Counted from the stretch's first letter, positions 1,125 to 30,476 are shown. The stretch is 32,000 bases of DNA from Candidatus Scalindua sp. (GCA_031316235.1 JALDRA010000001.1:2100001-2132000); one strand, 5' to 3'. The notes: a model not told the origin generated them from the letters alone. Translations and numbers: made by a program.

Positions 1125-1159
1125 CTACCTGTGAATACTTGAGATGAAGACTGTCGGAA

Positions 1160-1190
1160 AGCCGTGTGCGGGAAAACCGCATGCACGGTT
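1160..1190 (+). ncRNA. Group II intron domain V
   Basis: AGCCGTGTGCGG-GAAA-ACCGCATGCACGGTT: AGC triad, about 12-bp helix with bulge, GAAA tetraloop. Confidence 0.8.
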
Positions 1191-1350
1191 TGACGAGGGG
1201 GAGTTGGTAATATGGTATGGTTGTAATATTGTGACACTCACAGACGAAAGGGTGAGAAACAGTGAACACAAACTACAGCCTGTAGCTACTGCGCCTGTTC
1301 TCTACTCTACTGCAATCTGTGCCTGGTTACAATGTTGCCGTCTGTTTCAC

Positions 1351-2576: not shown

Positions 2577-3003
2577 CGGACGTTACTGATTCTCAACAGA
2601 AGAATATGAGATATTTTTAATATCGGTGAAAGGGTATTGTGTCAAACCAAAATAGGTGACCAAAATATATCCCAATTATTTGCAATATCATTGTCGGGGG
2701 AGCTATCGGGAATAAGTTTCCCTGAGCTTGCAGAAAGATATAAAATAGCAACTTATAAGACGATAACATCAAATGAAAGAAAAGGGAGAGAGCAGCATAA
2801 AGAAAAAAATAATATGCAAAGCTAATGCAGTCAAGGGGGGATTTGATCCTTTGTACAATCTCCTTTTTATGGGAAATTTTATAATGTGTATACGATGTTG
2901 TGGTATAAAAAGTGTACGATGTTATGAAACACACCAGCCAATCACAAATCAAGGTATGACCCCAAGTATGACCCAATAAATAGGTATGGTGTCCCCCGAA
3001 TAG
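2577..3003 (+). repeat. R1 interspersed noncoding repeat, copy A (core ~2590-2849, tail-A 2850-2966 with a ~24-nt internal duplication, DR25-like end 2978-3003)
   Basis: About 90% identical by eye to 13540-13902 and 30639-30899; partial copies at 7226-7300, 11521-11720, 18606-18742. Confidence 0.85.
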
Positions 3004-3170
3004 TCACAGGCCATTCGCCAGCCCCCGTCCCCGATGATTGACCCCATCTTGTCAAAGTTAAAGAACCGACCTCGATGATGCCCCGATGACGAGAGCCAAC
3101 GAACAAAGCCCGAAACGACCCATGGGCCAATCTGACCTGCAGATCGGACCTCGGGGTGTTGCGTGCAGTG

Positions 3171-5312
3171 CTACTGCTGTAAATCCCAAACGATTAGCTT
3201 CAGATTCCCGCTATTGGTTCGAACCGCGGAAACCAGCATGTCGTCGCCGGTGCGCGCCAGGTCGAGGGCGCTGATTCCACCAGCGAAAGCCTCACTGCGC
3301 AGCTGTATGGTGGCACCGTCGGGGCTGACCTCAAACAGGCTCATCTTTAATGCTTTGGTCGATGGATCCTGACAAGCCGTTACCAACGTCCCAACACCCA
3401 GGCGTTCGGAGTCGAGAAGCCCACATCCACCGGCACTGACCGCGCTGCCAAGACGACGTACTGTACCAACGTCGTTCACATCCCATGCGATTACTTTCTG
3501 GTCGCCTGATGTGGTGCGGACAGCAGACACCATCAGGTAGTCAAAATCTAGTGCGGTGGCGGTGAGACGACTTACGGACCCAGCGGAGTAGCTTCCTTGT
3601 CGCTGCACCTGCCAAGAACCATTTTCACGAACAACTTTCCAAGCGATCACTTTCAAATTGCCCACCGAATCCCGAACAGTGGTTGAAACGCCCCACGGAT
3701 TGGGAGTAACGTCCACCAGCGAAACCAGCCCTGCGGTGGCATCAGCGAGGCGATGAATGGAACCGTCGGCGTAGACACGCCAAGCAATCACTTTCAGAAC
3801 ACCAGTGCTGGTCCGCACTGCCGTAACAACATGCAGGCGATCCCAACGAGTTGCCGCAATGCTGCTGACTGCACCAGCGGTCGCATCGTGCAATCGCTGA
3901 ACCGAGCCGTTAGATGAGACCTTCCACGTGATCAGTTTCAGGTTGCCACTTCCATCACGAACCGCGGTGACAATGTTGCCGAGACCTGTGTGCAGAGCGG
4001 CAATCTGGGAAACCGGACCGGCCTGGGCGCTGCCTTGAAGACGTTGAACTGTGTTGCCGTCGGTACTGACACTCCAAGGTATGAGTTTCATCTGGTTGTT
4101 CGCAACGCTAACCGTAACCAGACGGCGGTGCCCAATACGGACAAGATGAACGTCATCGATCGATCCAGCCTCAGCGCTGCCTCGGCGCTGCAACGTCATA
4201 TTGGCAGAGCTCTGCGGCGAGATCAGATCATGACGGTTCATGTTCTCCAGGGCATCGCGCATGCGATCGATCTGTTGGGGAGAGAAGTGGTTGTCAAATC
4301 CGCATCCCTTGAAGTAACTCATCACGATGCCACGGTCTGGTTCCAATCGGTACGTCTTGCTGGAGGAGCCAAAGTCCACGGGAATATCGATAAAGCTATA
4401 GTTAGGAGTGCATTTGTCTCCATATTCCTCGACCCAGATGCTACCCATAGCATCGGCGGGGGTGTCGAGAACATACGCGCGATCACCATCTAGTGCGTCG
4501 AGTCCATCATTCTTCGCCATACCGTTGTCGACAGCCTTCTTGATTCTCGCCGCGGCGTCCTCCACGTTCAAAACTCCACCAACAAAAGGATGTACTTGAT
4601 GCAAGTAATGGCCAATCTCGTGAGCCAAATCTGGAGATCCAGGGTTGCCTTTCATCGAGACCCAACGACCGGTACCACTCGACGAACCACCGTTGCCAGC
4701 ACCGGTAACGGTCCAGTGGCCAAGCCCTTCGTCGTAGACCAACTTGTCCGGACTGGAGAAGTAGAGAACCAATTTGCCGCGATGGGTATTGGCAACCGCT
4801 CGTCTGAACGCCTTGTGCCAAACCGACGTGGTCGGTGGCTCAACATTAGGATCCGTGTAGTCTTCTACGTCAGCGAGAAGCGTAAAGTACTTGTTCAAGA
4901 TTGTCGCGTTCTTCTGCTCGAAGTCGGTCGCGGGGTCAAACTCAAACTCAATTCCAGCTTCGTAGAATATGTCGTTTATGGCCGAGATCTTCGACTGGAG
5001 TTTGGATGCTGTGTACGGTGAAGCATCCGAGCCGTCGCTGTTGGCTGTCGCGATAGCGTGCAGGCGAATCGTATAAACGGGTGTGCGCCTAAACGGGATT
5101 GGTTGCCACCGGGACGGAACTATTGGGCCATCGTTATCTTTGTATACCGTGGTTCCTCCCCCGGTTGTATTGCTTCCTATGACACCGTCCGTAGTTCCAT
5201 ACGAATAGTCATCTCTGGAAAACCCTGCTGCGTCTGCGTTGCCCAAAGTAGAAAATGCAACGGTTAATAAAATTACTGATACGCCAATTATTTTTTTTAG
5301 TTTGATTTTCAT
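3171..5312 (-). CDS. Secreted metzincin-like zinc metalloprotease fused to a C-terminal ~7-repeat beta-propeller-like domain
   Basis: SD GGGAGAGG 5 nt upstream of the ATG. Signal peptide MKIKLKKIIGVSVILLTVAFSTLGNADA. HEIGHYLHQVH (HExxHxxxxxH). Seven ~47-aa repeats of the form ..VTAVR..G.LK[LV]I[AT]W.V...G.V.RL.. with the last strand LKLIVWDLQQ at the C-terminus. Confidence 0.8.
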   Translation of the reverse strand: MKIKLKKIIGVSVILLTVAFSTLGNADAAGFSRDDYSYGTTDGVIGSNTTGGGTTVYKDNDGPIVPSRWQPIPFRRTPVYTIRLHAIATANSDGSDASPYTASKLQSKISAINDIFYEAGIEFEFDPATDFEQKNATILNKYFTLLADVEDYTDPNVEPPTTSVWHKAFRRAVANTHRGKLVLYFSSPDKLVYDEGLGHWTVTGAGNGGSSSGTGRWVSMKGNPGSPDLAHEIGHYLHQVHPFVGGVLNVEDAAARIKKAVDNGMAKNDGLDALDGDRAYVLDTPADAMGSIWVEEYGDKCTPNYSFIDIPVDFGSSSKTYRLEPDRGIVMSYFKGCGFDNHFSPQQIDRMRDALENMNRHDLISPQSSANMTLQRRGSAEAGSIDDVHLVRIGHRRLVTVSVANNQMKLIPWSVSTDGNTVQRLQGSAQAGPVSQIAALHTGLGNIVTAVRDGSGNLKLITWKVSSNGSVQRLHDATAGAVSSIAATRWDRLHVVTAVRTSTGVLKVIAWRVYADGSIHRLADATAGLVSLVDVTPNPWGVSTTVRDSVGNLKVIAWKVVRENGSWQVQRQGSYSAGSVSRLTATALDFDYLMVSAVRTTSGDQKVIAWDVNDVGTVRRLGSAVSAGGCGLLDSERLGVGTLVTACQDPSTKALKMSLFEVSPDGATIQLRSEAFAGGISALDLARTGDDMLVSAVRTNSGNLKLIVWDLQQ

Positions 5313-6000: not shown

Positions 6001-6305
6001 TCCTACACAACATTTGGTACCTTTATGGGATTAGACCCAACTACGTAGTGTGCTTATGGGTTATTATAGAAAGATAAATACTTTGAGTATTTCTGAAGAT
6101 CAGGAGGTGGGTAAAAATAACTTAACCCAAGTCGACAAATCGGAGCTAAAAAGTGCAAAAAATGGTAATATATCAGCCATTCGCTCTGCTTTTCCATACC
6201 TCCCTGCCGTGTAAATATTTTGCCAATCTCTCCCATTTAAGGAATAACAAAAACCTCGAAAAAAAAAGCTGGCGTCCGGTTTCGATTTATGGTATACAAT
6301 ACCAA

Positions 6306-7226
6306 ATGAGAAACAAATGGATTATAAGAGGTCGTACAATCAGCGAAGATGATATCTCCATCATCAACAATCTGATAAAAGAGTATTTCCATAAAGGACG
6401 CAAACACATTTCCCGCCAACTAGCACACCATTGGAACTGGTATCAACCCAATGGACAAACAAAGGACATGGCCTGCCGGTACATACTCCTCTCTTTGGAA
6501 CAAGTAGGAGTAATAAAATTACCCCCTCGTCTTAATTCGGCTAATAATGAGAAGAGAAAGATTGAAAAGATAGAACTGGATAAAAAGCCACTCACCGGAA
6601 CAGTTACAAACCATCCCTCTTTGAAGTTAAAACATCTCATCTCCCCGGAAGAACATAAGCTCTGGAACAGAATAATCCACAGCTATCACTACCAGGGATA
6701 CCAGATAATAGTTGGTAAATATCTCAAGTACATAGCATACATTGATGACAGACCAGTGGCCCTTGTGGGTTGGGGATCAGCTGCATGGTCTTTAGAGGCA
6801 CGTGATACGTGGATTGGGTGGAGTAAAGAGATGAAGGATAGGAATCTTTGTGGGATAGTGAACAATATTCGGTTTTTGATTTTGCCATGGGTCAAGATTA
6901 AATACCTGGCAAGTAGAATTCTGGGGTTAAATATAAGGCGAATACAAGGTGATTGGAAAAAGAGATATGGACATTCTATTTATTTATTGGAAACATTTGT
7001 AGAACAAGACAAGTTTCATGGGACATGCTACAAAGCGGCAAACTGGACATACCTGGGTCAAACAAAAGGGAACGCTAAACGAGGAAATACCCATACATAC
7101 CACGGGAAGATAAAAAAGGTATTCGTATATCCTCTGTGTAATGATTTTCGGGACAAACTCACCCGCCAGGATGACTTTGTCGTCTGCCCGTACCGGTCCG
7201 GACGGGCGCTAGTGGAGAAGGGGTGA
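6306..7226 (+). CDS. DUF4338 domain protein (DruA-like family)
   Basis: ..HSYHYQGYQIIVGKYLKYIAY.., ALVGWGSAAWSLEARDTWIGW, NNIRFLILPW, YLLETFVEQDKFHGTCYKAANWTYLGQTKG. Start chosen at MRNKW (6306) rather than the ORF-track 6153. Confidence 0.75.
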   Translation: MRNKWIIRGRTISEDDISIINNLIKEYFHKGRKHISRQLAHHWNWYQPNGQTKDMACRYILLSLEQVGVIKLPPRLNSANNEKRKIEKIELDKKPLTGTVTNHPSLKLKHLISPEEHKLWNRIIHSYHYQGYQIIVGKYLKYIAYIDDRPVALVGWGSAAWSLEARDTWIGWSKEMKDRNLCGIVNNIRFLILPWVKIKYLASRILGLNIRRIQGDWKKRYGHSIYLLETFVEQDKFHGTCYKAANWTYLGQTKGNAKRGNTHTYHGKIKKVFVYPLCNDFRDKLTRQDDFVVCPYRSGRALVEKG

Positions 7227-14836: not shown

Positions 14837-15778
14837 TTATAACTTGATCGTTGCTTTTATTTGATTAATCAGGTCTTCTTTTAATTCTTCCCATTTGTCC
14901 ATTTCCCAAGTAATATGATTAAATTGCCTTATATCAAAATGTAATTCTTTAAGTTGGTCTTTTTTTATTAATCGAATAACCTCTTTTGACTCGCCCATGG
15001 CGAAGCCAGCTTCAAAATATACACCATTATTCTGATCGGTAAAATCAGCAATAATAAATTTCGATTGTTTTATGTCAGAAATTATTTTATGAGAAATGTC
15101 ATTATTGTGTCTCTCATCAGAAACCAAATTTGCTTCAAAACCACAAGATGCACAAGCTGCCTTTATGGTGTTGACCAGATCATCTTGAAAATCTGTTTTG
15201 AAATCACATGCAATAAATACCTTTTTAGATTGTATATTGTTTCTTAATGCAGATTCAATTTCTGAAAACCCTTCAACCGTTAACATAACACATTCATTAG
15301 AATCATCACCAATTTTACCATGGTCTCTCTTTTGTAAAATTTTTGTTTCTTGTAAATATGTTAAGAGCTTGATTAGTTCGCTATAATTTTTTAGGTAGAA
15401 TAGTGTATATAAATTTCTATACTCTACTACTAATGATTTTCCTATAGAAGATGTTTTTTGATAGAGGTAGCTCTTTATTTTAGAAATTTTTTCACTGAGA
15501 GGAATTGTTTGACAATACTCTAAAATTTGTGGCAATTCTTTACCTATAAACTCACTTGTTAATGTGATGGATTGGTTGTTTCTTAAAAATCCAGAAAACA
15601 ATATTTTCTTTTCATCAGTTGTTAATATTTTTAAAAATTCTTTATCATCTAATGCACGCCGTTCGATAGTGAACTTACCACATAGGCAATTACTATATGT
15701 AGTTTCAAGCGTATCAGGATTTTTATATATTTGCGCTTCTATTCCACAAAATGGGCATACTTTATTTTCGGTATTCAT
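14837..15778 (-). CDS. Zn-ribbon + helical/wHTH-like middle + C-terminal nucleoside 2-deoxyribosyltransferase-like / TIR-like domain protein
   Basis: N-terminal CPFCG...CLCG. C-terminal KKVFIACDF..(~45 aa)..SKFIIADFTDQNNGVYFEAGFAMGESKEVIRL (Rossmannoid NDT/TIR-like pattern with conserved Glu). Confidence 0.55.
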   Translation of the reverse strand: MNTENKVCPFCGIEAQIYKNPDTLETTYSNCLCGKFTIERRALDDKEFLKILTTDEKKILFSGFLRNNQSITLTSEFIGKELPQILEYCQTIPLSEKISKIKSYLYQKTSSIGKSLVVEYRNLYTLFYLKNYSELIKLLTYLQETKILQKRDHGKIGDDSNECVMLTVEGFSEIESALRNNIQSKKVFIACDFKTDFQDDLVNTIKAACASCGFEANLVSDERHNNDISHKIISDIKQSKFIIADFTDQNNGVYFEAGFAMGESKEVIRLIKKDQLKELHFDIRQFNHITWEMDKWEELKEDLINQIKATIKL

Positions 15779-16729: not shown

Positions 16730-18136
16730 TTAAACAGGAGACCATTTAGAATACCCGTTGTTACGTATTATCCCCTTGATTCTTAATGCAGAGAGCAAGT
16801 TAGTAACTTTGTTTTTCTTCTGAGATTCAGTTAATATGTCTGGCAATTTATCCCGAAGGAACTTCTCAATGTTTTTTCTTGGTGATTCCCCAAACTTTTT
16901 TAGATATTCAACGATGAGATTTTTATAGTGCTCATCATCAAGCCCTCTCTGCTTAATATAATACGCCTTTAATTCATCATTGGACAGCGATGCAGTAATT
17001 TTGGCGGAGATAACGTAATTGGGTTTTCTCCCCTCTATTAAACCAAGCCCTTTCAGATATTTGATCTCTTCATCAGGAAGAGGTTTCTGCTTTTGTACCT
17101 TATCTAACATGATAATTTGCTCTAGAGACAAACTCGGATTTCGTGCGAGTACACGCGCAAAATCCATATCGAGTACCTTGCCAATTACTGTTACTTTTAC
17201 TTTATCTTCTGACAAGTCATATTCCGGCATTGGAAAAAATCTTTCACGCTGATAATTAAACATCTTCCTTATGCCACCGCCTGCGGTGTCAACCATTTTT
17301 AAATTAAACATTGCGGTTGCAAGAAACCTATTGCGGTAATATTCTTCTGGTGCATCTTCTTTAACTACCTTCTCCACTGAGCCGGGAATGAAGCTGCCGA
17401 GATTAGTAAATATCAATTGGTCTTCCATTTCAACAACATTAATGCGGCCGCCTTTTGTGTAATCCTGGTGTGCAATGCAATTGTTTATAGCTTCACGGAT
17501 TACAAACGGTTCGTATTGGTCAACCTCATCAGGGAATAAAGTGCCGTCTTTGATATAGCGATATTTCAGATTGCGGATTTTTGCATATATCTTATCAACG
17601 GCCAACAGTAAAGGACAACTCTCAATGTGATAGTCCCTGTTATTTCCTTTAGCATCTTTCAAGAGCCAGCGTATCTTTGCCTCTGCCGGGCTAACAAAAT
17701 GTTCCGGATTCAATGGCGATAGTTTTTCTCCTTCCCTTCCATAGTAGTGTCCATCAAAGGCAACGGGTATACCTTTTGGAGCAGCAGGAATGTGAAACAT
17801 AACTATACGACCTTCGGGTAGATACAGTTCATAGATTTCAATAAAAGAAATACGATTGGTGGTTTTATTGGCTAACTCCCCTTTAAGGTTGTCAAGATCC
17901 TTACGGTTATGGCGGAACTGGCTGCCAACTATTGTTCTTCCCTTATCCTTAATCCCGAAAATAAGCCATGCGTGAGATTTGCCTTTGAGGTTTGCCTCAT
18001 TTGAAAGAGCAGAAAAATATTTGCCCAGCTTATTAGAGTCATAATTATTCCTGGCCTCTTTAAATTCAAAGACCTCCGTTTCCGCAGGCAATCTGCGAAA
18101 TTCCTCCAATTTAATTAATAATTCTTTTTCCGTCAT
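16730..18136 (-). CDS. AlbA_2 (Schlafen-like DNA-binding) + HATPase_c_4 domain putative regulator (often annotated RecG-like)
   Basis: ETEVFEFKEARNNYD..KYFSALSNEANLKG..AWLIFGI (AlbA_2). REAINNCIAHQDY..GGRINVVEMEDQLIFTNLGSF (ATPase-like). C-terminal wHTH-like tail. Confidence 0.8.
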   Translation of the reverse strand: MTEKELLIKLEEFRRLPAETEVFEFKEARNNYDSNKLGKYFSALSNEANLKGKSHAWLIFGIKDKGRTIVGSQFRHNRKDLDNLKGELANKTTNRISFIEIYELYLPEGRIVMFHIPAAPKGIPVAFDGHYYGREGEKLSPLNPEHFVSPAEAKIRWLLKDAKGNNRDYHIESCPLLLAVDKIYAKIRNLKYRYIKDGTLFPDEVDQYEPFVIREAINNCIAHQDYTKGGRINVVEMEDQLIFTNLGSFIPGSVEKVVKEDAPEEYYRNRFLATAMFNLKMVDTAGGGIRKMFNYQRERFFPMPEYDLSEDKVKVTVIGKVLDMDFARVLARNPSLSLEQIIMLDKVQKQKPLPDEEIKYLKGLGLIEGRKPNYVISAKITASLSNDELKAYYIKQRGLDDEHYKNLIVEYLKKFGESPRKNIEKFLRDKLPDILTESQKKNKVTNLLSALRIKGIIRNNGYSKWSPV

Positions 18137-18794: not shown

Positions 18795-21700
18795 TCAGGT
18801 AGGCTGAATGGATTCATTTAATTTGTTTGTCTTTAAAATTATTTTAAACATTTTCTTAATGTATGTGGCTTCGTCTTCCTGAAACAATACATTATGCTTC
18901 TCGACATCTTCCTTATTAAGCTTTTTATCCCACCATTTTATTTGATAATGCTCTGTAACAGAGATAATGAATGAATTCAAAATAACATCTTTGTCACCAA
19001 TCTGGCCTTCAAGAGTTTTAATCTCTTTATGAAAACGCATTTTAGGATCATCGAGGCCTTTTGCATGACGAATACCATGAGGATCGATAAATGTAATGAA
19101 TTGTGTTCCGCCATAAACTACCCACATGATAAAGTCCGGATAAAAATTATGAGCCTGAAAGAAACCGACTCCTCTGCCTCTACCCAGATTCCGGAGTAAA
19201 TACATCTCCTTATCTTTAAAATAATCAATATTGTCCTCATAGTGTTTCTTCAAGTCGGCAACAAATTGATTCTCTCCCTTATTCAAGGCAACCGGTATCA
19301 CCTTTATTTCGCTATCTTTTATGTAAATCATGGGTTTATACAGGTGTCGGTCGAAAGAGAATGAGTGTAAAGATCCGAACTCAAAATTACTGAAATCCTG
19401 GTTTTCTATCTTTTGTTTCAGCTCTGTAAGTTTGGTAATAATATCCTCCCGAGACTTTTCAACCGTAAAGGTATACTCATCAAAAAGATTACCCTTCTTT
19501 TCCTGAGCTGACAAAGCTGTTTCAACTTCATGAATATACTTATATTCAATCTTATCTTTCTCATAATCTAATTTTTTCACATTGTAATACTGATCACAAT
19601 ATTTCTTCAGTAAGACAACGGCTATATCCTGCCATAATTGAACCTGTTCGAATGATTTAAGTTCAAGTTCTTCCTCTGGAATATATAGGATATACCAGTC
19701 AGTTCTCGCCAACAAGGCAGGAAGAATATTCTTATCAATATTCAAATTATAATAACAGCGTTCATTCTTGTATTTCTGTAATTCAAAATAGATCTCTTCA
19801 ACATCCATAAAAGCAAGATGTACACTCTTTAATTCTCCTTCGTTAAATGTTGCCACTGCAGTGGAACGGGCCATCCTGCTTTGCAGGGCTTCTATCTTCG
19901 GGTACCAGTCAACGAGAACCGGATGTTCAAGCATGTAGTCATCAGGCTCTCCCAGCGTTGGCCGTTCACCCTGTTTCTTGAAATTAACTCCCTCTTTAAG
20001 CTGAGGATATTTAAGTTTGGTTTTCCCCAGATTAGAAATAGCCGGTATCGCAATCTCTTCGTATTCATCTGCTCCTTTAACCCCTTCATCCTCCAGATAT
20101 TCTCTGAATTGACGCATATAATCCGCCTTGACGCCAAACACATGAAGCGTCTCAACTATGCCGATGTTCTTGGGAATGTTAACACTCTTCAAATATTTGC
20201 TTCGTTTCAGGCTCATATCGTATCCCTTCAAGCGCACACCTCTTCCAAACAACTGAATAATTTCAGACCCTTCCGTTTTACCCACATTCATAAGACCCAT
20301 TGTGCTTACGCGCCAGCTGTTCCAGCCTTCCGTGAATTTCTTTGATCCTATCAGGATTTTTACCGGAGAACTCTTTTCAGAGAGCCGATGGAAAAGCGAA
20401 TCAGAAAAATCTTTGCTTGAAGCAATGAGACCATTCTGTTCACAAAGGTTTATCAGATCACGGTCATCTCCGACATTGATAACGCCGAAATGCTCATTGT
20501 CTCCAAGTCTCAGGCCTATCTCTCCCTGCGCTCCTTTCAGATTGTCTAAATGCATATGTGCCTCAACAGTAGTACAATTAAAGACCTGTTTCCTGATATC
20601 AGTGTATAAGTCATTCGCTTCCATTCTCTTGGAGATTAAATATATGAATTTTCCGGCAAAAAGGTCATTTCCTCTGGTGTCATTCAGCTGAGATGTCCCA
20701 CTGAGTAATCTCTCAATATATTCAATTGATTCCTGCGTATTCCTTAAAAAACTGTCCAGAAACAGAAGGATGTCTACCACATCGGAAACCTTGCTGCCCT
20801 GTTCAGTGCGAACTGCGTTTACCCTGCTGCCGACAAAAATCCAGAGCGGCTCTTCCAGTAAAAACGGAGAAAATGCCCTTTCGTTTTCATGAAACAATAA
20901 AAGCTGCTGGTAGAAACTCAAGAGACATGCAGTTAAGTAAAGCTGTTTCTGCTCTTCATGACGATTTTCTGCAAGATTTAATATTGAATACTCTTTTCCG
21001 TATCCGTCCCGGTAGAAATATTTATACGAATAGTCAAACAGGATGCACTTTGCATACTGCTGAAGCATCTCTTTTTTACCGGATGCCTTCATGGCCTGAC
21101 CGAATGTCGCCGAATACTCAAAGGAAAAGCCATCCTCACACAGGCGATTGCGTTTATCCATCCACTCTATCCCGCCGGCACCTCGATGGCCTTCATCAAC
21201 AAGCACCAGATTTTTCCCCTCAAAACAATCCACGCTGACTGTCTTCTCTTTTGACTCTTCCTTTAATTTATGGATATCAATAATCTCAATTTCGTTACTA
21301 ATAAACAGCCCCAAAGCGTCTTTTTTGAAAAGATCAGCCGTGAAACCTGATAACAGAAATTCTTTTCAATGCTGTTCTGAAAGCCCCTCGTTGGGAGTTA
21401 AAAGGATTGTCCTGTTTACCTTTTTCTTTAAACCATATCTCTTTTGATAATGCTGATACTGAAGTATGTTTATGTGCATGATCAATGTTTTACCTGATCC
21501 CGTCGCCTGCCAGAAGGCTATCTTGTTGAGCTCTTCAATTGCGTATGGCATAACCTGTTCACCTGGTTCTCTGTCTGTATTAAACTGCGTGACAAAATCA
21601 TTCAGCTCCGTGAGCAGGTTTTGCGGATTTCGAAAGTATCTGTCCAGATAAATCTCGCAGAAAAGGAGCGCCATATACTGAAAATACTTCCAGCGAAATC

Positions 21701-21989
21701 CTTCACGTTTCGAGCAAATACGCAGGGTGTGGCTAACGATATTCTGATCAAACTGTAGAAGGAGATCGTCAGGCAGGGCTTTACGTTCAAAGAGTTGGTT
21801 GGTCAGGTGTGTGTGAAAGTGGGAGACATTATTCTCATCGACACCCTCCAGATGCTGTGCTTTCATGCCATCGCACAAATTATCCAGTGACTCTACCTCA
21901 AAGAGAAAAAGGATATATTGGAAAAGCACGAGGGACTTTCCAAACTTGAAATCTGCCTGTCTCCGTCTGTTTTGTTGTCTTTTAGCCAT
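18795..21989 (-). pseudogene. Type III Res-like SF2 helicase with a C-terminal nuclease-like motif; one reading frame interrupted by a single in-frame TGA (21366-21368)
   Basis: ORFs 21366..21989 and 18795..21314 are in the same frame. Read-through gives ..LTPNEGLSEQH*KEFLLSGFTADLFKKDALGLFISNE.. Motifs: ATGSGKT, VLVDEGHRG, FTEGWNSWR, QLFGRGVRLKG, YPDFIMW..FIDPHG. Confidence 0.8.
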
Positions 21990-22160
21990 AGTATTTATAT
22001 AATTGATTGTATATCACTATATTTATAAGCCATATCCGCTTAGGTTACATATAGTTATAATTTTTGTCTCACTAAATATACACAAACATGTTTGCGTCTC
22101 ATTAGCAGTCTTAAATGAGACACAAAATGTATTTTTGTTTCATCAGTTAGATGCTAAACG

Positions 22161-23255
22161 TTATTCCACAATTTCGAGTAACTTATTAAAAATATATATG
22201 CTGGCTTTTCTTCCGCCTCCTTTACGCAAAACCGAAATTACGCCTTCTTTTTCAAGCAATTTCATAAAACGCATCGCACTTGCCTTAGGAATGCCCGAGC
22301 TATGGATAAAGTCACTGGCGCTAAAGACTGGCCTGGCAAAAAGTGTGTCGATGATATTAATAACATATTGAGACCTTGTAATAGTTTGCATACGCTCTTT
22401 CTTCTTTTCATATAATTCCAATATTTCTCTCGCCTTTTTACTGTTTGTTTTTGCCTGTTCAACGATAGAGCGTAAAAAGAACTCTATCCACTCTTCCCAT
22501 TTCTTATTTTGAGTAATAGCTTTTAGTCTCTCATAATATTCATCTCTATTGGCCTCAAGGTATTCACTTATATAAAACATCGGAGTACTGAGCACCCTTT
22601 TTTCGTATAGTAATAATGGAATCAATATCCTTCCAACCCTTCCGTTTCCATCTACAAAGGGGTGAATTATTTCAAATTGAGCGTGAACAACGGCAAGCTG
22701 GACTAGCGTATCCTTTTCATCAAAATGTATATACTTCTCAAAATTAGATAAGTACTCCATTAAGCGCATTGGCTCTGGTGGAACGTAATAAGCTTGTTCC
22801 ACAGGCGTTCCCGGTTTACCAATCCAGTTTTGAACACTCCTAAATCTACCCCTTCCCTTATCTTTACCCCTAACACTATCTAAAAGTTGGCCGTGTATCT
22901 CTTTTATCAAATTTAATGTGATTGGCTTTTTCATAAGCCAGTCAAGCGCCATATCAATAGCCTTGCGATAATTTATTATTTCCTGGATATCCTTTTCTTT
23001 TTCAGTCTGTATCACAGCTTGAGCAGAAGCTTCGAATTCAAGAACCTCTACAAGGCTAGCCTGTGTCCCTTCAATGCGTGAAGAAAGAACTGCCTCATTA
23101 GTAGTAAGGGGTGATAAGAGCACACGTGGATTGATAATTCCCTGTAAAATACCATCATAACGAGCTAACTCAGCATTCGCCTTTCCTATAAGAGTTATAA
23201 ATCTTACCCAATCAATGTCTTGTAGTGGTAATGTATCCGGAATAAATGGTTTCAT
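22161..23255 (-). CDS. fic: Fic-domain protein (AMPylase-type) with N-terminal inhibitory motif and C-terminal wHTH
   Basis: HPFVDGNGRVGR (HxFx[DE]GNGRxxR). SSRIEGT matches [ST]xxxE[GN]. C-terminal ..GIPKASAMRFMKLLEKEGVISVLRKG. Confidence 0.9.
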   Translation of the reverse strand: MKPFIPDTLPLQDIDWVRFITLIGKANAELARYDGILQGIINPRVLLSPLTTNEAVLSSRIEGTQASLVEVLEFEASAQAVIQTEKEKDIQEIINYRKAIDMALDWLMKKPITLNLIKEIHGQLLDSVRGKDKGRGRFRSVQNWIGKPGTPVEQAYYVPPEPMRLMEYLSNFEKYIHFDEKDTLVQLAVVHAQFEIIHPFVDGNGRVGRILIPLLLYEKRVLSTPMFYISEYLEANRDEYYERLKAITQNKKWEEWIEFFLRSIVEQAKTNSKKAREILELYEKKKERMQTITRSQYVINIIDTLFARPVFSASDFIHSSGIPKASAMRFMKLLEKEGVISVLRKGGGRKASIYIFNKLLEIVE

Positions 23256-23283
23256 TTTTTCTTTTTTCAGATTCTATAGGGAG

Positions 23284-26200
23284 TTAAATTTCCTTAACAT
23301 CAAACATCCGTTTCTTAAACTCTTCTTCTATGAGAGAGACCTTCCATCTGTCCTCATCAACCTTCAGGTTTTCAAGATTGTTGTCTCCATTAACAAATAT
23401 CTTATCAAATTCAAAATCCTGAGTATTATAACCCTGCTTGGTAAAAAAGGTATCCAGTTCCTCATTTGTCTTTTCTTTCGTATTTCTCCAAATTACGAGT
23501 GTCTTTTCTCCTGTGCGCAATTTACCACGAATCACCTTGAATCCCCGAATAACTTCTGTCTGCTCAACATAAAGGCCGACCAGGTAATTAAAGGTTTCTA
23601 TCAGGTCTATTTTTTTTGTCTTCAGCTCATTCTCATCGCGAATCTTGAGGGTATAATGAAAAGGGTCTTCAAACCTGTCAATATTGAGCAGGCTGTCGCT
23701 TTCCCGAGTCTCTATATCCAGCATATATCCAATCACATAATCTTCTTTTGCGGCCTTACTCATATCAAGTACCATCTGCTGCTTTTCATCCCGATTAAGA
23801 ATAAGATTATCGAGTGTATCTTCGTAGCTTTCAAGTTTCATGTATTTGAACATGTGGCTAACGCCCTCACGGGAAACCGGTTTGCCGTTTTTCCAGTCTT
23901 TGGAATAGACTACCTTTTGTATACGTGGTTTGAGAACCGTATCAAAATACTGCCCCATCTCAACGAGGATATATTTACGATTACCATTGTCTTCACGGTT
24001 AAGGTTTATAACGGCATGGGCAGTGGTGCCGGAGCCGGCAAAGTAATCGATAAATAATGTATAAAGTCCATAGCTTATGGATTGCAAGCAATCTTCAACA
24101 GCATGTAAGCTTTTAGGAAAAGAAAAATCTCTTTGCCCTATTCCAAAAATATCATTTAACAATTCTGAGCCATAAGTACTTGCATCAAGTTTTTTTCCTG
24201 TCCAAACTGATTTTCGTAGCTTTTGTTTTCCCTCTTGATGATAGTGTATTTGAATAGCTCCTTTAATTATTTTTGCCCATACACTACCTTCCTCTGCATC
24301 TTGAATTACTCTCTCTCTCCCATAATACCACCTTCTCTCTACATTATTATCATCAATTGGCCAAATCATTTCTGTTCTTGGATTTTTATGTTTAGGGATA
24401 TCATCCTCCAATGCCAAAGGTTCAGTTGTCCCAACTATCTTCAGTGTTTGTTTGTCTACTTCGATTCCATAAAACTGCTTAGGTGATGAGCTTCTAGTAG
24501 AATCTGTTCCTGTCCTCCTCAAGTTTCTTCTTATGTCATTTGACTTTTCCTTTTTACGAGTAATTAAATCCTTATCTCTTTTAATTGCCCACAACGCATA
24601 TTCATGAGTAATAGCAAAATTACTTTTTACTCTACCTCTATGATTATACTCAATAATAACTGGTCTTATCTCATATTCTGTCATCACCTGTTCAATAATT
24701 TTTGTTAAATTACTTAATTCACAATCATCAATTGTTGCACATAAAATACCATTTTTATTTAATAGCGACTTACCTTTGTCAATTCGATCATAAATCAAGC
24801 AATTCCAACTGCTATCTTTATACCCATTTTTATAAACAATCTCTGTGGCATCAGTATTGTATGGAGGATCAATATAAACCCCATACACTTTCTCCTGATA
24901 TTTTTCTCGCAACAAATTCAACGCTTGAAAATTCTCTGAATTAATTATCAATCCATCACACGCTTCATCAACATTATCAAAACTTGCCAGCAGTTTTTCC
25001 TTAAACTCATCACTGAAGAATTTCGTATCGAGAACCAGATAGTGATTGGCTTCCAGAAAGTTCCTGGTAAGCGGTTCTGAGTATGCGGGTTTCATTAAAT
25101 CTCCCTCAATCTCATGAATGGCAAACAGCCTTACCCACTCCTCACGCTGGGCGTCATTTTTTACTATCTCCTCATACAGCCCTGCCGGCACACGGTCTAA
25201 CGTAACACAATATCCGCAATCAACCACAAACTTCTTCTTGAGCCACATCTTCTTCTGAAACTCCTCAATCTGTGCCAGAAATGTTATGATCTTCCGGGCA
25301 ATATGCTTAAGAACCTTGACCTTCCCGATAGACCGCATCACCTTTTTCTCATCCTGTTCATCAAGGTCATCAATAAAGAGGACTTCATTCTTGATATAGA
25401 AATCCAGTTCGCGCCGCATGAAACCGCCGAGATCTTTGTGGATAAAGAAGTCAAAATTGAACCGGGCGGTGTAGTCGTTCAAATGCTTTTCGAAAAGTGT
25501 TCGCTTTGGATTCTTTGGAGTCGACTTTTTTATAAACAGATCCTGATAGCCCTCCTTTACAAGATATCCATCTCTAGAATCAACATATTCCACTGTCTTT
25601 TTATTCAGATCCGTCTGTTTTGCCTTATCAGGTTGATACGTAAACTGAATATACAAATCGTTTTCTTCAATCTTAATCGGTTCTTCCTCATAGAGTTTAA
25701 ACTTTCGTTCTTTCCCCTGTTCCTGTTTAACATTATCCTTCTCTTCAGTCGCGTCAACAAGCTTGAAATGCACCCGTTTGTCACCATCAATCTTAAATGC
25801 ATAATCCCTCAGATATTCAGATGATTTTATGTAGTATTGATCAGCGTTCGCCCAATGGAGCTTAACCTCTTCTCCCTCGTAGGGTATTGCATAGGTATCT
25901 TTCTTATAACGCCGGAGGCTTAAGAAGTCGCCGTCATCATAGTAACGTCTGAAAAAGGTAGTCAGATGTGAGAAGACCTCATTTACAAGCGCCTCCTCAT
26001 TGCCATATGTTCCAAGCTCTTCACGCAATTCTCTTACTTTAGGCGAATCATCAGGATTCAGTCCGCTTTCCTTGACTGTCTTTTCCAAACGGGCTAACTC
26101 CTTCTGCTTTTCCCCTGCATCGACGCTTTTGTATTTTGAGAATTCTTCTTTCACCTGAGGCAGAAGTTCTTTATCGAGAAAGTGCTCTATTTCATCCCTC

Positions 26201-26301
26201 TTCTGATTCATGATACGATAGATGCCAAAATCAAGATCAGCCTGGTCCATCTGAAACATCTGCCGTAAAATCTTTTTCAATTTTTCATATTGTGTTTCCA
26301 T
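23284..26301 (-). CDS. Beta-class N6-adenine (N6_N4 type, type III Mod-like) DNA methyltransferase with a ~460-aa N-terminal extension
   Basis: VYIDPPYNT (motif IV) precedes DYFAGSGTTAHAV (motif I) by about 260 aa. N-terminal LDFGIYRIMN and FIHKDLGGFMRRELDFYIKNE regions have unknown function. Confidence 0.9.
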   Translation of the reverse strand: METQYEKLKKILRQMFQMDQADLDFGIYRIMNQKRDEIEHFLDKELLPQVKEEFSKYKSVDAGEKQKELARLEKTVKESGLNPDDSPKVRELREELGTYGNEEALVNEVFSHLTTFFRRYYDDGDFLSLRRYKKDTYAIPYEGEEVKLHWANADQYYIKSSEYLRDYAFKIDGDKRVHFKLVDATEEKDNVKQEQGKERKFKLYEEEPIKIEENDLYIQFTYQPDKAKQTDLNKKTVEYVDSRDGYLVKEGYQDLFIKKSTPKNPKRTLFEKHLNDYTARFNFDFFIHKDLGGFMRRELDFYIKNEVLFIDDLDEQDEKKVMRSIGKVKVLKHIARKIITFLAQIEEFQKKMWLKKKFVVDCGYCVTLDRVPAGLYEEIVKNDAQREEWVRLFAIHEIEGDLMKPAYSEPLTRNFLEANHYLVLDTKFFSDEFKEKLLASFDNVDEACDGLIINSENFQALNLLREKYQEKVYGVYIDPPYNTDATEIVYKNGYKDSSWNCLIYDRIDKGKSLLNKNGILCATIDDCELSNLTKIIEQVMTEYEIRPVIIEYNHRGRVKSNFAITHEYALWAIKRDKDLITRKKEKSNDIRRNLRRTGTDSTRSSSPKQFYGIEVDKQTLKIVGTTEPLALEDDIPKHKNPRTEMIWPIDDNNVERRWYYGRERVIQDAEEGSVWAKIIKGAIQIHYHQEGKQKLRKSVWTGKKLDASTYGSELLNDIFGIGQRDFSFPKSLHAVEDCLQSISYGLYTLFIDYFAGSGTTAHAVINLNREDNGNRKYILVEMGQYFDTVLKPRIQKVVYSKDWKNGKPVSREGVSHMFKYMKLESYEDTLDNLILNRDEKQQMVLDMSKAAKEDYVIGYMLDIETRESDSLLNIDRFEDPFHYTLKIRDENELKTKKIDLIETFNYLVGLYVEQTEVIRGFKVIRGKLRTGEKTLVIWRNTKEKTNEELDTFFTKQGYNTQDFEFDKIFVNGDNNLENLKVDEDRWKVSLIEEEFKKRMFDVKEI

Positions 26302-26322
26302 ATGTTTATTGTCTCTCTTGTG

Positions 26323-29192
26323 TTAAACAACCTTCCATCGTATCATAAATAATGTTTCGGTATCAGTTTTCTGCTCCATCTTTTTCTTGAGCGTGTCAAT
26401 CAGTATATCACGTTTTTCTTCTATTTCATCCTCTACATCAAAGATTCGCTGTCGCTGCCTGCGTTGAATTTTTTCTGTTTCCCTGATCTTTACCTCAACG
26501 TCATGCTTCTCCTGCAGGGATGTCGATTGGCGCAACTCTCGGTTCAAAGCACGGAGTCTGTTCTTGGTATCCTTTAATTCCTTTTCGGCAGATGAGATCA
26601 GGTCATCTGTCCAGCGAAACAGGCGATCGCATTCATCATGATAATAGGAATTGTTCCGTTCCATTGTCTTATCGATCGTAGCGTCAATATGACATTGAGC
26701 GTCATCTCGCAATCTCTTCTGTATTTCATCCGGCAAACTAACATCTCTTTGAGTAGTGGCGCCACAATCAAACAATTTCTCGCAAATTTCAGGATGAATT
26801 ACAGCGCCTGTATCATCGAAAGCATTAAAAAGTAAATATTCGTCCTGCCCGAAACTCTTAATCATGAGTTTAGATAGTATCAAATACCCTGATTTTCGCT
26901 TGAGTGACTCAACGACAGATATCTTAACAGGATGGCTGCTGATATCAAAGACTAGTTCTGCATAAGGGGTATTGCATCTTCTCGATTCTGACAATACATA
27001 CTCCCCAAGAGGATGAGACATGCGATATAAATATATACTTTCAACATTTTCTTTTCTTTTTGATATTAAATGATAGTTGCCGGTGCGGATTGTATTGCCA
27101 GGTGGTTCCTTAAGATAAAACGATAACTCTTCACAATGGAATTCTGCTCTCTTCTCCAAGACATGTTCCGTAATCTTCCAGAATCTCAGCTCCATCTTAT
27201 CAAGTAAATCCTGTGTTTGGTCCAAATGCAGTTTAAGACGTTCGTGTACATCCTCATCAAAATGTTCAAGGAGAATCTGTTTGCTTTCCTTAATCTTTGA
27301 TTGAATCTGTTCGTCCATTTTCTGTTGTAATTCTGAAAAGGCGCTCTGAATCTCCTGTGGTTTGCGGCATTGCCGGTAGATTCGTAACACCTCCTTCTCA
27401 AAATCGACACCTGATTCGAGCGAACCAAGTACTTCATCAGATGCACCAAAGACACCACTGAACAGTTTAAATTTATATACCAAAAGATCATATACCTGTC
27501 GGTCAACGTCATTGCGTTCATTTAAGAAATTAATCACGACAACATCATATTTTTGTCCGTAGCGGTGACATCTTCCTATTCGCTGTTCTATACGTTGCGG
27601 GTTCCATGGCAGATCATAATTGATAACCAGTGAACAGAATTGCAGATTTATTCCCTCTGCAGCAGCTTCAGTTGCGATAAGAATATCCGATGTATCTCTA
27701 AAATGCTCCAGGATGGCAATACGTTTATCCGAGCTCTTCGATCCACTGATACGACCGGTGTCTCTGTTGTGCTCAAGCCAGTTTTCATATATTTTTTTAG
27801 ACTCCTGGTCTGTATTTGTTCCGTTAAACGTAACAACTCTTCCTGCATAGCCGTTGGCATCCAGATAGTCCTTTAAGTATTGTTGTGTCCGACGTGATTC
27901 GGTAAATACAACAGCTTTTTTCTTTGCCCCCATTTTCTCCGCTTCCGCAAAACCGCGTTCAATGCCGTCTCTGAGCTTTTTTGTTTTTGAGTCGACTTTG
28001 ATAACCTTTGCGTCTTCAATAAATTTTTCCAGCAATTCAATTTCGTGATCAATCTTTTCCTTATCAATTTTACCTCCATCCTGATCTTCTGTTTTATCTT
28101 CCTCCTCTTTCATGGCTATTCCCAGTTCTTCCATCTCCTCATCATCCAGGGATTCATCATCAACCAACTGATCAACGATGTTTTCTTCTACCGGTTGTTC
28201 ATCACTTAACTTCTCTAAACGTCTTTTTATTGTTTCCAATGTTGCTATGAGAGCATAGGATGATGATGCCAGTATTTTTCTCATCACCAAGGTAATAAGA
28301 GATTTCTGGCTTGTTGGTATGGCGTAGGTATCAGGCTGTTGGAGAAATGCTGTTATGCCCTGATATAATTTTATCTCTCGATCGGTCTGTGCGAAGTGAA
28401 TGGTTATTGCTTTGCGATTAGTATAGGGGATATATTGTAACACCTGCTGGCGCAGTGTGCGTTTACAAAAACCTTTTAAACGAGTCTTAAGGCTTTCTAA
28501 GTCGGCATCATTAACATATAATTGACGAAAACTTCTGCTATCTCCAAAGAGATAATCGTCTATAATTGTGGATAAACCAAAAGCTCCATTAACGAATTCT
28601 GTAGTGGGGTTGCTGTCAAAAGTATCTTCTTTGTGTCTTCCAGAACCCACTTAATCGATTGTCCGAGTACATTTGATCTGCGGTATGCGTTTCTCAGCTT
28701 ATGAGCTTCATCAATAATTGCTAAGTCCCAGGGGATTAATTTTGTTGTTTCTTTCTTACTATGTATGAACTGATATGAACAGATAACAACTTTATCCTGG
28801 GTAAATGGGTTATCATAACCATCATTATTGAACTGATTATACGTCCTAGACTCAAGAATCACGGAAGGTATATTAAATTTTTCTTCAAGCTCTATGCTCC
28901 ATTGCTTTCTTATCGATGCCGGACAAACAACGAGTAATTTTCGCTTACGTTCTGCCCAATACTGGCAAAGCGCTATAGATGCTTCGATTGTTTTACCCAA
29001 ACCAACCTCATCAGCCAGGACAACACCTTTTGACAAAGGAGACTTTAAGGCGAAAAGAGCTGCTTCTATTTGATGGGGATTCAAGTCAACCGCAGCATCA
29101 AAAAGGGAACGAGATATCTTCTCAATCCCATCTTCAGTGGATGATTTCAGCAAGTCGTGTGCATAATATTTAGCATGATAATCGGTAATCAT
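26323..29192 (-). pseudogene. SNF2-family helicase with a long C-terminal extension; split by a 1-nt frameshift near 28579-28582
   Basis: The N-terminal ORF ends ..LTATPLQNSLMELLVYPQL*. The second ORF contains ..AFGLSTIIDDYLFGD.. One extra T in the cttttgg run would give ..SLMELFGLSTIIDD.. Motifs: DEVGLGKT, IIDEAHKLRN, LTATPLQNS, QRIGRCHRYGQ. Confidence 0.8.
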
Positions 29193-29334: not shown

Positions 29335-29490
29335 TCAAGAAGATCCTTTACGAGAGTTATGATATCGACATAAAACTTGTCCATTAAAAATAGCAGTGGG
29401 CCCACCCTTAGTATGTGGTATTATATGGTCTGCTTCATATTCATTCCAACCTACCGTTGCCTCTTTTTCATTTTTTTCTTCTTGCATCAT
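29335..29490 (-). pseudogene. 51-codon HNH nuclease core mini-ORF, probably a truncated gene
   Basis: MMQEEKNEKEATVGWNEYEADHIIPHTKGGPTAIFNGQVLCRYHNSRKGSS*: DH..N..HN core present, upstream CxxC absent. The ATG lies 3 nt from the RAYT left inverted repeat. Confidence 0.45.
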
Positions 29491-29492
29491 AA

Positions 29493-29505
29493 GGGTCAAG
29501 TCTGC
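29493..29505. repeat. RAYT-flanking inverted repeat, left arm GGGTCAAGTCTGC (overlaps the RAYT stop codon)
   Basis: Perfect reverse complement of 30514-30526. Confidence 0.8.
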
Positions 29506-30476
29506 CGATAGCTTAACTGTAAATCTCTTTTTATATTATCTACATGTTTTTTCAGTTTTTTGTTACTTATGAGATTTGACTTTACACTTTCAATTATACT
29601 GCTTACGCTACTATATTTAACAACCTTAAACTCTTTGCCTATTTCCTTTAAAGAATCGCGCCGCATATATCGTGTTAAGTAAATCGCTATATTTCTTGGC
29701 TCATTAACTGCTCCCCGACGGATACCATATAATTGAGACATTTTGACTTTGTATTCTTTACAAACGGCAAGTATTATTTTTTCCTTGTCTGGGGCCAACA
29801 GCTTCGTCTCTGGAATTTCTTCTTTAAATAGAAAGGCTGAATATTTCTCTTTTACCCAGTTTATAAATTCCTCAGTTCCCAGTATAGAAGGAGAGTTCTT
29901 CTTTTTAAATACATTAACTATCTCTTCTGGATCTTCCTCATTCATAAATTCCTTATATTCTTTCAAACGTTTTGATTTATCATGAGTCAATAATTCAAAG
30001 AAACTTTCCTTGTCTAACCAATTCCATTGAGAGGATTTTGACAGATATCCTTTATGACTGCTCCAGGCATAATCCTCTAATCGGCTAACTATTCCAGCCC
30101 GTAGAGGATTGTGGTGAATATACCTTACCAAAACGGTAAGATAATTTTCACTGTCTAATAAAATAGATTTATATCTTCCTCTGAATAATTGTCCATCATG
30201 CCTATTCCTACGATTGTATCTCTGAGTATAAACACCATTTATGTGCCTCATGCACCGTGAAAGATTCCCTTCGGGTGTCTGGACTAAAAGATGGTAATGA
30301 TTAGACATTAAACAATATGCAACTATTTTAATATTCCATGCTGATACCGTTTCCTTTAATATCTCAATAAAGGCTATATAATCTTCTTTCTTTGGGAATA
30401 TGGTTTCACGGCGACGCCCTCTATTCATTACATGATAGTACGCACCCGAGTATTGTATTCTGAGCGGTCTTGACAT
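29496..30476 (-). CDS. REP-associated tyrosine transposase-like (RAYT / IS200-like Y1) protein with a C-terminal DnaA-C-like HTH domain
   Basis: YHVMNRG, AYCLMSNHYHLLV (HUH), VRYIHHNPLRAG..YAWSS (catalytic Tyr region). C-terminal ..RGAVNEPRNIAIYLTRYMRRDSLKEIGKEF.. is like DnaA domain IV. Confidence 0.85.
   Translation of the reverse strand: MSRPLRIQYSGAYYHVMNRGRRRETIFPKKEDYIAFIEILKETVSAWNIKIVAYCLMSNHYHLLVQTPEGNLSRCMRHINGVYTQRYNRRNRHDGQLFRGRYKSILLDSENYLTVLVRYIHHNPLRAGIVSRLEDYAWSSHKGYLSKSSQWNWLDKESFFELLTHDKSKRLKEYKEFMNEEDPEEIVNVFKKKNSPSILGTEEFINWVKEKYSAFLFKEEIPETKLLAPDKEKIILAVCKEYKVKMSQLYGIRRGAVNEPRNIAIYLTRYMRRDSLKEIGKEFKVVKYSSVSSIIESVKSNLISNKKLKKHVDNIKRDLQLSYRQT

Follow-up and report, generated by a model that had tools for sequence, protein, structure and literature searches.

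The locus described here occupies positions 18795..29192 (minus strand) of a 32,000-nt stretch of DNA from Candidatus Scalindua sp. (GCA_031316235.1), which we call the window and whose numbering is used throughout. It contains four genes that run in one direction and encode, in order, an SNF2-family ATPase, a long type III-like DNA methyltransferase (Mod), a Fic protein, and a long Res-like ATPase of superfamily 2 (SF2) with a nuclease-like C-terminus. Our listing of open reading frames (ORFs) agrees on this layout, and on intergenic gaps of 21, 28, and 171 nt, with an earlier sequence-only reading of the same DNA. Based on two surveys of homologous loci and on profile searches, the locus is probably a member of a widespread three-gene restriction-modification (R-M) module with the fixed order SNF2-Mod-Res and a type III-like Mod-Res core, in which Fic is carried as cargo and of which the window holds a decayed copy. 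The sequence-only reading had proposed a hybrid, SNF2-assisted type III-like module. The conservation of the triad supports that view; on the other side, the components all belong to known families, their combination follows a familiar theme, and the window copy is decayed. As a unit, the conserved module (type III-like and SNF2-assisted) carries no name in current schemes; already known are every component family and the theme of an SNF2 protein, a methylase, and a helicase-nuclease.

Conservation of the SNF2-Mod-Res gene order

Conservation was assessed from two starting points. An alignment of 16 Mod proteins (A1) led to 80 loci, each from the genome of a different species, which were searched with 10-kb flanks by tblastn using the window proteins. 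An alignment of the C-terminal extension of SNF2 (A2) led to 80 metagenome loci, so that the two surveys together comprise 160 loci. Res was located downstream of Mod in all 75 informative loci of the Mod-anchored survey. Of 73 loci informative for SNF2, 42 contained the gene, which immediately preceded Mod in 41 and lay downstream of Res in one. The Mod-anchored loci cover Bacteroidota, Bacillota, Planctomycetota, Alpha-, Beta-, and Gammaproteobacteria, Thermodesulfobacteriota, Nitrospirota, Deinococcota, and a Methanospirillum. Of the loci anchored on the SNF2 extension, 77 offered usable DNA downstream; the long Mod was the next gene, in fixed order, in 75 of them, and Res was present in every locus with enough DNA past Mod. 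The gap between SNF2 and Mod was 200 nt or less in 84/114 loci.

Intact full-length ORFs for all three genes were found in 55 loci, and 31 loci have the Mod-Res pair alone. Motif retention among the 55 intact triads was high for each protein (52-55 for SNF2, 51-53 for Mod, and 53-55 for Res). Pairwise divergences of the three proteins were correlated, most closely for Mod and Res (r = 0.87), followed by SNF2 and Res (r = 0.50) and SNF2 and Mod (r = 0.45; Mantel p = 0.001 in each case). Mod and Res are an obligate pair, and this SNF2 subfamily is its dedicated partner, which is almost never found elsewhere. Most loci lacking SNF2 belong to a Mod clade that is further removed (median N-terminal identity 40% vs 51%), and four close relatives are also without the gene. 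No alternative conserved partner was found in these loci, with the exception of a UvrD-helicase fused to a PD-(D/E)xK domain, which is encoded directly upstream of Mod, in the usual place of SNF2, in three of them (L007:7268-9988, L066:5553-8354, and L063:3136-5100). This substitution suggests a generic position for an accessory motor in the operon.

The flanking regions (67 upstream and 45 downstream) revealed no fourth conserved gene, since no family occurred in more than seven loci. The third-ranked flank cluster is a small ORF that overlaps or abuts the SNF2 start in six loci; on an Escherichia coli plasmid the ORF at that position is annotated as a helix-turn-helix (HTH) regulator. An intact HTH-SNF2-Mod-Res operon is carried by a conjugative IncFIB/IncFII plasmid of E. 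coli (pEC316_2; L161, NZ_CP018955.1 29496-39248). In both E. coli and Klebsiella, conjugative IncF plasmids carry an intact triad together with the small HTH gene, and related Mod genes were detected on plasmids of Klebsiella, Raoultella, and Citrobacter. The full operon was present in 2 of 5426 complete E. coli genomes. A search of a phage collection gave one partial methyltransferase match and no sign of a phage-borne system. It had been proposed from the window that the genes make up a module outside canonical type III, DISARM, and BREX; the recurrence of the three genes across many phyla, with no conserved fourth gene in the flanks, bears this out, and the expectation that they would co-occur in other genomes held for the SNF2+Mod+Res triad.

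The three core proteins

The SNF2 gene (DrmD/RapA-like; 26323..29192, minus strand) is a pseudogene in the window. One nucleotide is missing from a run of T (T4 on the minus strand, at 28579..28582), which divides the gene into ORFs at 28560..29192 (210 aa) and 26323..28650 (775 aa). Addition of one T to the run restores ...LQNSLMELFGLSTIIDDYLFGD... and a protein of 956 aa, the same length as all intact homologues. The motifs quoted from the sequence (DEVGLGKT, DEAH, LTATPLQNS, and QRIGRCHRYGQ) were all recovered, and Pfam assigned SNF2-rel_dom and Helicase_C domains. The best PADLOC match was to the DrmD model PDLC02619 (E=1e-201), spanning aa 29-673 only; a weak match to HmaA was also observed. 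The score against NCBIfam DISARM_DrmD_b was 670 bits, below the equivalog cut-off of 950, and the aligned region (profile positions 22-669 of 868) was the helicase part only. Homologues are publicly named "SNF2-related protein," "DEAD/DEAH box helicase," "ERCC4-related helicase," or "RapA," and none of those listed is named DrmD.

The C-terminal extension of SNF2 comprises the last 362 aa of the window protein (26326..27411, minus strand; alignment A2). It had been described as a charged, coiled-coil-like segment of ~430 aa. An extension is indeed present; it is, however, about 360-410 aa long, conserved, and family-specific, with a mean column identity of 54%. When the extension was tested alone, its first 79 aa matched a PADLOC model and nothing further was matched. 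The last ~280 aa of SNF2 gave no match in PADLOC (DrmD models included) or Pfam, the extension had no Pfam match at E up to 10, and a profile search against PDB sequences returned nothing meaningful. Full-length PADLOC alignments had given the idea that the SNF2 C-terminus is a BrxHII/RapA-type C-terminal module; this idea failed when the segment was tested alone. The extension was found in 1678 representatives at 50% clustering, of which 883 were at E<=1e-10. It is always C-terminal, and the complete-looking proteins that carry it are mostly about 920-1000 aa long. The extension marks the SNF2 subfamily that is linked to the long Mod/Res pair.

The Mod gene (23284..26301, minus strand) is intact and encodes a beta-class N6A/N4C DNA methyltransferase of 1005 aa, in which motif IV (DPPY, aa 478-481) stands ahead of the FxGxG motif I (FAGSGTT, aa 754-760), as had been read before. 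The order of motifs and the homology to known Mods are those of a type III Mod. The best PADLOC match was MTase_III PDLC03646 (E=9e-226), the PADLOC matches were confined to MTase_III/II models, and Pfam identified an N6_N4_Mtase domain (PF01555). Among PDB sequences, matches were obtained to the Mod proteins of EcoP15I (4zcf_A, 5e-19), H. pylori (6k0w), and Mbo45V; 7dsu was among the entries matched. The window Mod is 100% identical to a protein from a metagenome-assembled genome of a Candidatus Scalindua sp., in keeping with an origin of the window in an anammox planctomycete. The N-terminal region (aa 1-460; 24922..26301, minus strand) contains many invariant residues throughout the long-Mod family, with or without an SNF2 gene (alignments A1 and A5). 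The statement that these ~460 aa are unassigned is correct for Pfam, where neither the N-terminus nor the C-terminus of Mod has a match at E up to 10; it does not hold for PADLOC, in which the region is covered by PDLC03646. A structure prediction for the N-terminal region, as the sequence-only reading had suggested, gave an AlphaFold2 (AF2) model with a predicted local distance difference test score (pLDDT) of 70.5, and a Foldseek search of the PDB with this model found nothing below E=1. PDLC03646 and the Res model PDLC03654 cover the full lengths of the long Mod and the long Res, respectively, and the Mod N-terminus and Res C-terminus also match alone. No NCBIfam model matches Mod or Res.

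The Res gene (18795..21989, minus strand) is the second pseudogene, with ORFs at 21366..21989 (207 aa) and 18795..21314 (839 aa). Its lesion is an in-frame TGA at 21366..21368, and the read-through product is 1064 aa long. The sequence-only reading had referred to two lesions, and both were located: the 1-nt deletion in SNF2 and the stop in Res. The TGA lies in a variable column of alignment A3, right after an invariant Gln-His pair, at a position occupied by Arg in the closest homologue, and is consistent with a CGA>TGA substitution. The only PADLOC match of Res was REase_III PDLC03654 (E=4e-218), and Pfam assigned ResIII; homologues are publicly named "type III restriction endonuclease subunit R" or "DEAD/DEAH box helicase family protein." ATGSGKT, DEGH, QxxGRxxR (here QLFGRGVR), and YPDF...FIDPHG were all present as reported. 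The last of these belongs to the C-terminal motif YPDF...W...FIDPHG (19074..19142, minus strand), of the pattern PD...(D/E)x(K/H), in which alignment A3 shows no variation at P951, D952, W956, P970, and G972. Elsewhere the motif ends in DPKG in 52 ORFs and in (D/E)PHG in 20, and the PHG variant recurs in separate clades, including that of the window. On this comparison the C-terminal motif is that of a putative PD-(D/E)xK-like nuclease, and the DPHG of the window appears as a recurrent natural variant. Some Res homologues (P0132, P0160, P0161, P0163, and P0164) are longer, with about 1200-1258 aa vs about 1060, and also contain a Peptidase_S24 (LexA-like) domain, which hints at variants controlled by damage or by a signal.

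Fic, cargo slots and surroundings of the locus

The Fic gene (22161..23255, minus strand; SoFic-type, 364 aa) is intact. Its active-site motif HPFVDGNGRVGR, of the HPFxDGNGRxxR type, is complete, and an SxxxEG inhibitory motif is present at the N-terminus. The best PADLOC match was SoFic (E=5.5e-117; profile positions 6-358 of 361), and Pfam assigned Fic_N and Fic domains. By catalytic motif, HPFx(D/E)GN(G/K)R, and by PADLOC family model the protein is of the SoFic family; against the NCBIfam SoFic equivalog it scored 182 bits, below the cut-off of 550. It thus resembles the single-gene SoFic defence in its full-length model match and intact motif, and differs in the sub-threshold equivalog score and in being embedded in another operon.

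The place of Fic in the operon is one of two cargo slots, which were defined as a Mod-Res distance above 600 nt or an SNF2-Mod distance above 400 nt. Cargo was present between Mod and Res in 37/117 loci and between SNF2 and Mod in 30/114, and the inserted ORFs were almost all co-directional with the core genes. Cargo families were identified by clustering and by scans with hidden Markov models, and they are mostly known or candidate defence genes: the DUF1016/YhcG nuclease (PDC-S02) in 7 loci, the AAA_21 + DUF4276 pair (HEC-01A/B) in 6-7 loci, PDC-S32 in 5 loci, and Ppl, PDC-S01, and GmrSD-type enzymes. SoFic-type Fic was represented by 6 ORFs in 5 of the 160 other loci, and the copies in L050 and L139 are 46-48% identical to the window protein. 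Fic is an independent SoFic-type defence gene in a variable Mod-Res slot, and therefore cargo and not core; the earlier inclusion of Fic in the proposed architecture was not supported, as it is one of many interchangeable genes. Type I R-M operons have likewise been reported to hold Fic/DOC and DUF1016 genes between their core genes (PMC9881135).

The surroundings contain further genes of mobile elements and defence families. Just upstream of SNF2, at 29335..30476 (minus strand), what remains of an HNH endonuclease (54 aa of its C-terminus) adjoins a REP-associated tyrosine transposase that carries a fused DnaA C-terminal HTH domain. Downstream of Res are a protein with Schlafen AlbA_2 and HATPase_c_4 domains (16730..18136, minus strand) and one with a TIR / nucleoside-deoxyribosyltransferase-like C-terminus (14837..15778, minus strand). 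A lone DruA-domain protein (PF14236, E=1.6e-39) is encoded at 6153..7226 (plus strand), and the other window ORFs scanned match no Druantia family. A group II intron was identified at 12..1310 (plus strand), with a reverse transcriptase/maturase ORF at 12..1124 (Pfam RVT_1 and GIIM) and an Rfam Intron_gpII match at 1157..1310. The GC content, otherwise about 37% in the window, rises to 54-57% at ~3000..5000; an ORF of 713 aa in this stretch (3171..5312, minus strand) has no Pfam, PADLOC, or Rfam match.

Relation to known systems and alternative explanations

The closest comparison is with type III R-M systems (EcoP15I/EcoP1I, Mod2Res1). The locus shares with them the co-directional order of mod then res, with both products under PADLOC type III models; a beta-class Mod in which DPPY precedes FxGxG and which is recognisably homologous to EcoP15I Mod; and a Res that, by its motifs, has an SF2 ATPase at the N-terminus and a PD-(D/E)xK-type motif at the C-terminus. 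It differs in that Mod is about 360 aa longer and has a conserved N-terminal region (the EcoP15I Mod chain is 644 aa), Res shows no sequence similarity to EcoP15I Res or any other solved structure, a dedicated third gene (SNF2) is present in about half of the family, and the operon has cargo slots. The rule that two genes suffice for a type III system does not describe the SNF2-bearing lineage, in which SNF2 is linked in the 75/77 SNF2-anchored and 42/73 Mod-anchored loci given above.

DISARM class 1 (DrmD + DrmMI + DrmA/DrmB/DrmC) resembles the locus in having an SNF2 helicase core, near DrmD_b in sequence, beside an adenine methylase and a helicase. The window locus is without DrmA, DrmB (DUF1998), and DrmC (PLD; optional in DISARM class 1), for which no match was found by PADLOC or Pfam in the four proteins or in ten neighbouring window ORFs, and it has another methylase class and another SNF2 C-terminus. 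The same scans of window ORFs gave no match to PglZ or BrxC of BREX; the absence of DISARM and BREX partners noted from the sequence is therefore confirmed. ARMADA consists of ArmA (BrxHII-like SNF2), ArmB (PglX-like methyltransferase), and ArmC (YprA helicase-nuclease; bioRxiv 10.1101/2025.09.15.676423). It shares the three-part logic of the locus, in which an SNF2 motor and a methylase are combined with a helicase that ends in a PD-(D/E)xK nuclease, and in type II also the gene order SNF2-MTase-helicase/nuclease. All three families differ, however: the methylase of the window is a type III Mod and not PglX-like, and its Res is of REase_III type and not a YprA/DUF1998 helicase. By definition ARMADA has a PglX-like methylase and a YprA-family (DUF1998) helicase bearing a Vsr-type nuclease (bioRxiv 10.1101/2025.09.15.676423); here the PADLOC matches were to REase_III for Res and to MTase_III/II models for Mod.

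The DUF499-centred, BREX-related Hma/"BR" systems (PMC12839542) are also methylation-based, with an SNF2-family helicase and embedded defence genes, and PADLOC "HEC" candidate families occur as cargo of the triad as well; the window locus differs from them in having neither a DUF499 ATPase nor a DUF1156-type methylase. MANTIS (bioRxiv 10.64898/2026.09.23.753747) probably belongs with these systems; counts of terms in its text (DUF499 present, SNF2 absent) suggest a system different from the triad. No name for the SNF2-Mod-Res triad was found in PADLOC, NCBIfam, or the searchable literature, and a description in REBASE or in further papers may exist. The proposal of a possibly undescribed architecture is therefore upheld in part: PADLOC names each protein (DrmD, MTase_III, SoFic, and REase_III) and Mod+Res is already filed as type III, and the triad as such is unnamed.

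Type III enzymes hemimethylate an asymmetric site, and their cleavage depends on ATP and on two unmethylated sites in inverse orientation. If the module works as its relatives do, Mod would mark an asymmetric site in host DNA, and the Mod-Res complex would spend ATP on communication along the DNA, with the PD-(D/E)xK domain cutting unmarked DNA, as in type III enzymes. SNF2 may act in the restriction arm as a translocase on double-stranded DNA, which would load or move Mod-Res on incoming DNA or clear its path; the models for this role are DrmD of DISARM class 1, BrxHII of BREX type 3, and ArmA of ARMADA. It has been shown that Walker mutants of the SNF2 protein ArmA lose ARMADA defence (bioRxiv 10.1101/2025.09.15.676423), and that a DrmD-like SNF2 protein acquired by the ietAS system is essential to its defence (bioRxiv 10.64898/2025.12.08.692795).

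In the Scalindua genome, both ATPase genes (SNF2 and Res) are broken, and Mod and Fic are intact. R-M systems usually decay in this way, as the loss of restriction is tolerated and the loss of methylation is not. Since both ATPase genes are inactivated, restriction has most likely been lost here, leaving an orphan methylase and Fic. The joint loss of SNF2 and Res gives weak, single-case support to a place for SNF2 in the restriction arm. The opposite view, that the system is fully functional and its lesions are either artefacts of sequencing or assembly or circumvented through phase variation or recoding, seems unlikely. It can call on the position of the SNF2 frameshift in a homopolymer, which is a classic site of long-read error and of slippage, on the origin of the window in a 4.15-Mb contig of a metagenome-assembled genome, and on the intactness of all other motifs and of 55 triads elsewhere. 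A run of T4/T5 is, however, too short for a typical contingency tract, and the Res stop is a substitution at a variable column, which CGA>TGA would explain. Moreover, the exact 210-aa SNF2 product and the 207-aa and 839-aa Res products were found in separate Logan assemblies of runs SRR28338161 and SRR28338162; the presence of the same truncated products in the assemblies of two runs means that the lesions are not a one-off consensus error.

The remaining alternatives concern the identity of the module. That three unrelated defence elements merely adjoin each other, namely a canonical type III R-M system, an orphan DrmD from a lost DISARM, and SoFic, is essentially correct for Fic; as an account of the whole locus we regard it as very unlikely. 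PADLOC does split the proteins over three named families or systems, the window is a defence island (with the DruA-domain, AlbA_2/Schlafen, and TIR-like proteins), and Mod+Res occurs without SNF2 in 31/73 loci. For SNF2, however, this account is largely refuted by the fixed order of extension-bearing SNF2 and long Mod in so many phyla (75/77 loci) and by the short SNF2-Mod gap in most loci (84/114); in addition, the protein scores under the DrmD_b cut-off, its C-terminus is unlike the DrmD models, and no neighbour of DrmA or DrmB size is conserved. A degenerate or minimal DISARM class 1 or ARMADA, with the Res-like protein replacing the DrmA/DrmB (YprA-type) helicase, is the most improbable of the explanations considered. 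Its best arguments are that DrmD models are the top PADLOC and NCBIfam matches of SNF2, and that the logic of SNF2, adenine methylase, and helicase-nuclease is that of ARMADA (bioRxiv 10.1101/2025.09.15.676423). Against it, Res matches REase_III only, with no match to DrmA or YprA/DUF1998, Mod is a beta-class relative of type III enzymes and not of the gamma-class DrmMI/PglX type, and no DUF1998 or PLD gene is present in the window or conserved in the flanks.

Several observations nevertheless weigh against a three-gene restriction module with a type III-like core. Restriction activity and the role of SNF2 are predictions by analogy for every family member. The co-divergence of SNF2 with Mod and Res is only moderate, and SNF2 is absent from about 40% of Mod-Res loci, so that it is not universally required. 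The window Res, with DPHG in place of DPKG, is a predicted nuclease only. No sequence similarity was detected between Res and solved structures, EcoP15I Res included, even by a profile search of PDB sequences. An AF2 model of the Res homologue P0122 (84% identical) had a pLDDT of 70, a predicted template modelling score (pTM) of 0.41, and a pLDDT of 25-35 in the RecA2 region; with this low-confidence model, Foldseek returned weak, non-significant matches to SF2/SNF2 helicases (best E=0.007), and EcoP15I Res was outside the top 50. As no solved structure was matched, the label of type III Res is due to a PADLOC/REBASE-derived name and to domain order. We still favour the SNF2-Mod-Res module. 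A stronger version would make the triad a distinct, unnamed three-component defence system, in which SNF2 is obligatory for restriction and docks via its C-terminal extension, and not a type III R-M system plus an optional helper. Derived from type III, it would stand beside DISARM and ARMADA and have built-in slots for secondary defence genes such as SoFic. This version is conceivable, and we lean slightly against it.

For this genome alone, the locus would represent an ordinary, decayed restriction system that leaves an orphan methylase. The family is of wider importance. The SNF2 extension forms about 1,700 clusters at 50% identity and is distributed over many bacterial phyla and some archaea; conjugative plasmids of Klebsiella and E. 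coli also carry it. Annotation tools would report the module as "type III R-M" plus an orphan "DrmD," which hides its abundance and inflates the number of DISARM-like matches. The cargo slots are a ready source of candidate defence genes. Finally, the contribution of SNF2 to a Mod-Res enzyme bears on a question common to DISARM, BREX type 3, and ARMADA, namely what the SNF2 helicase does in methylation-based defence.

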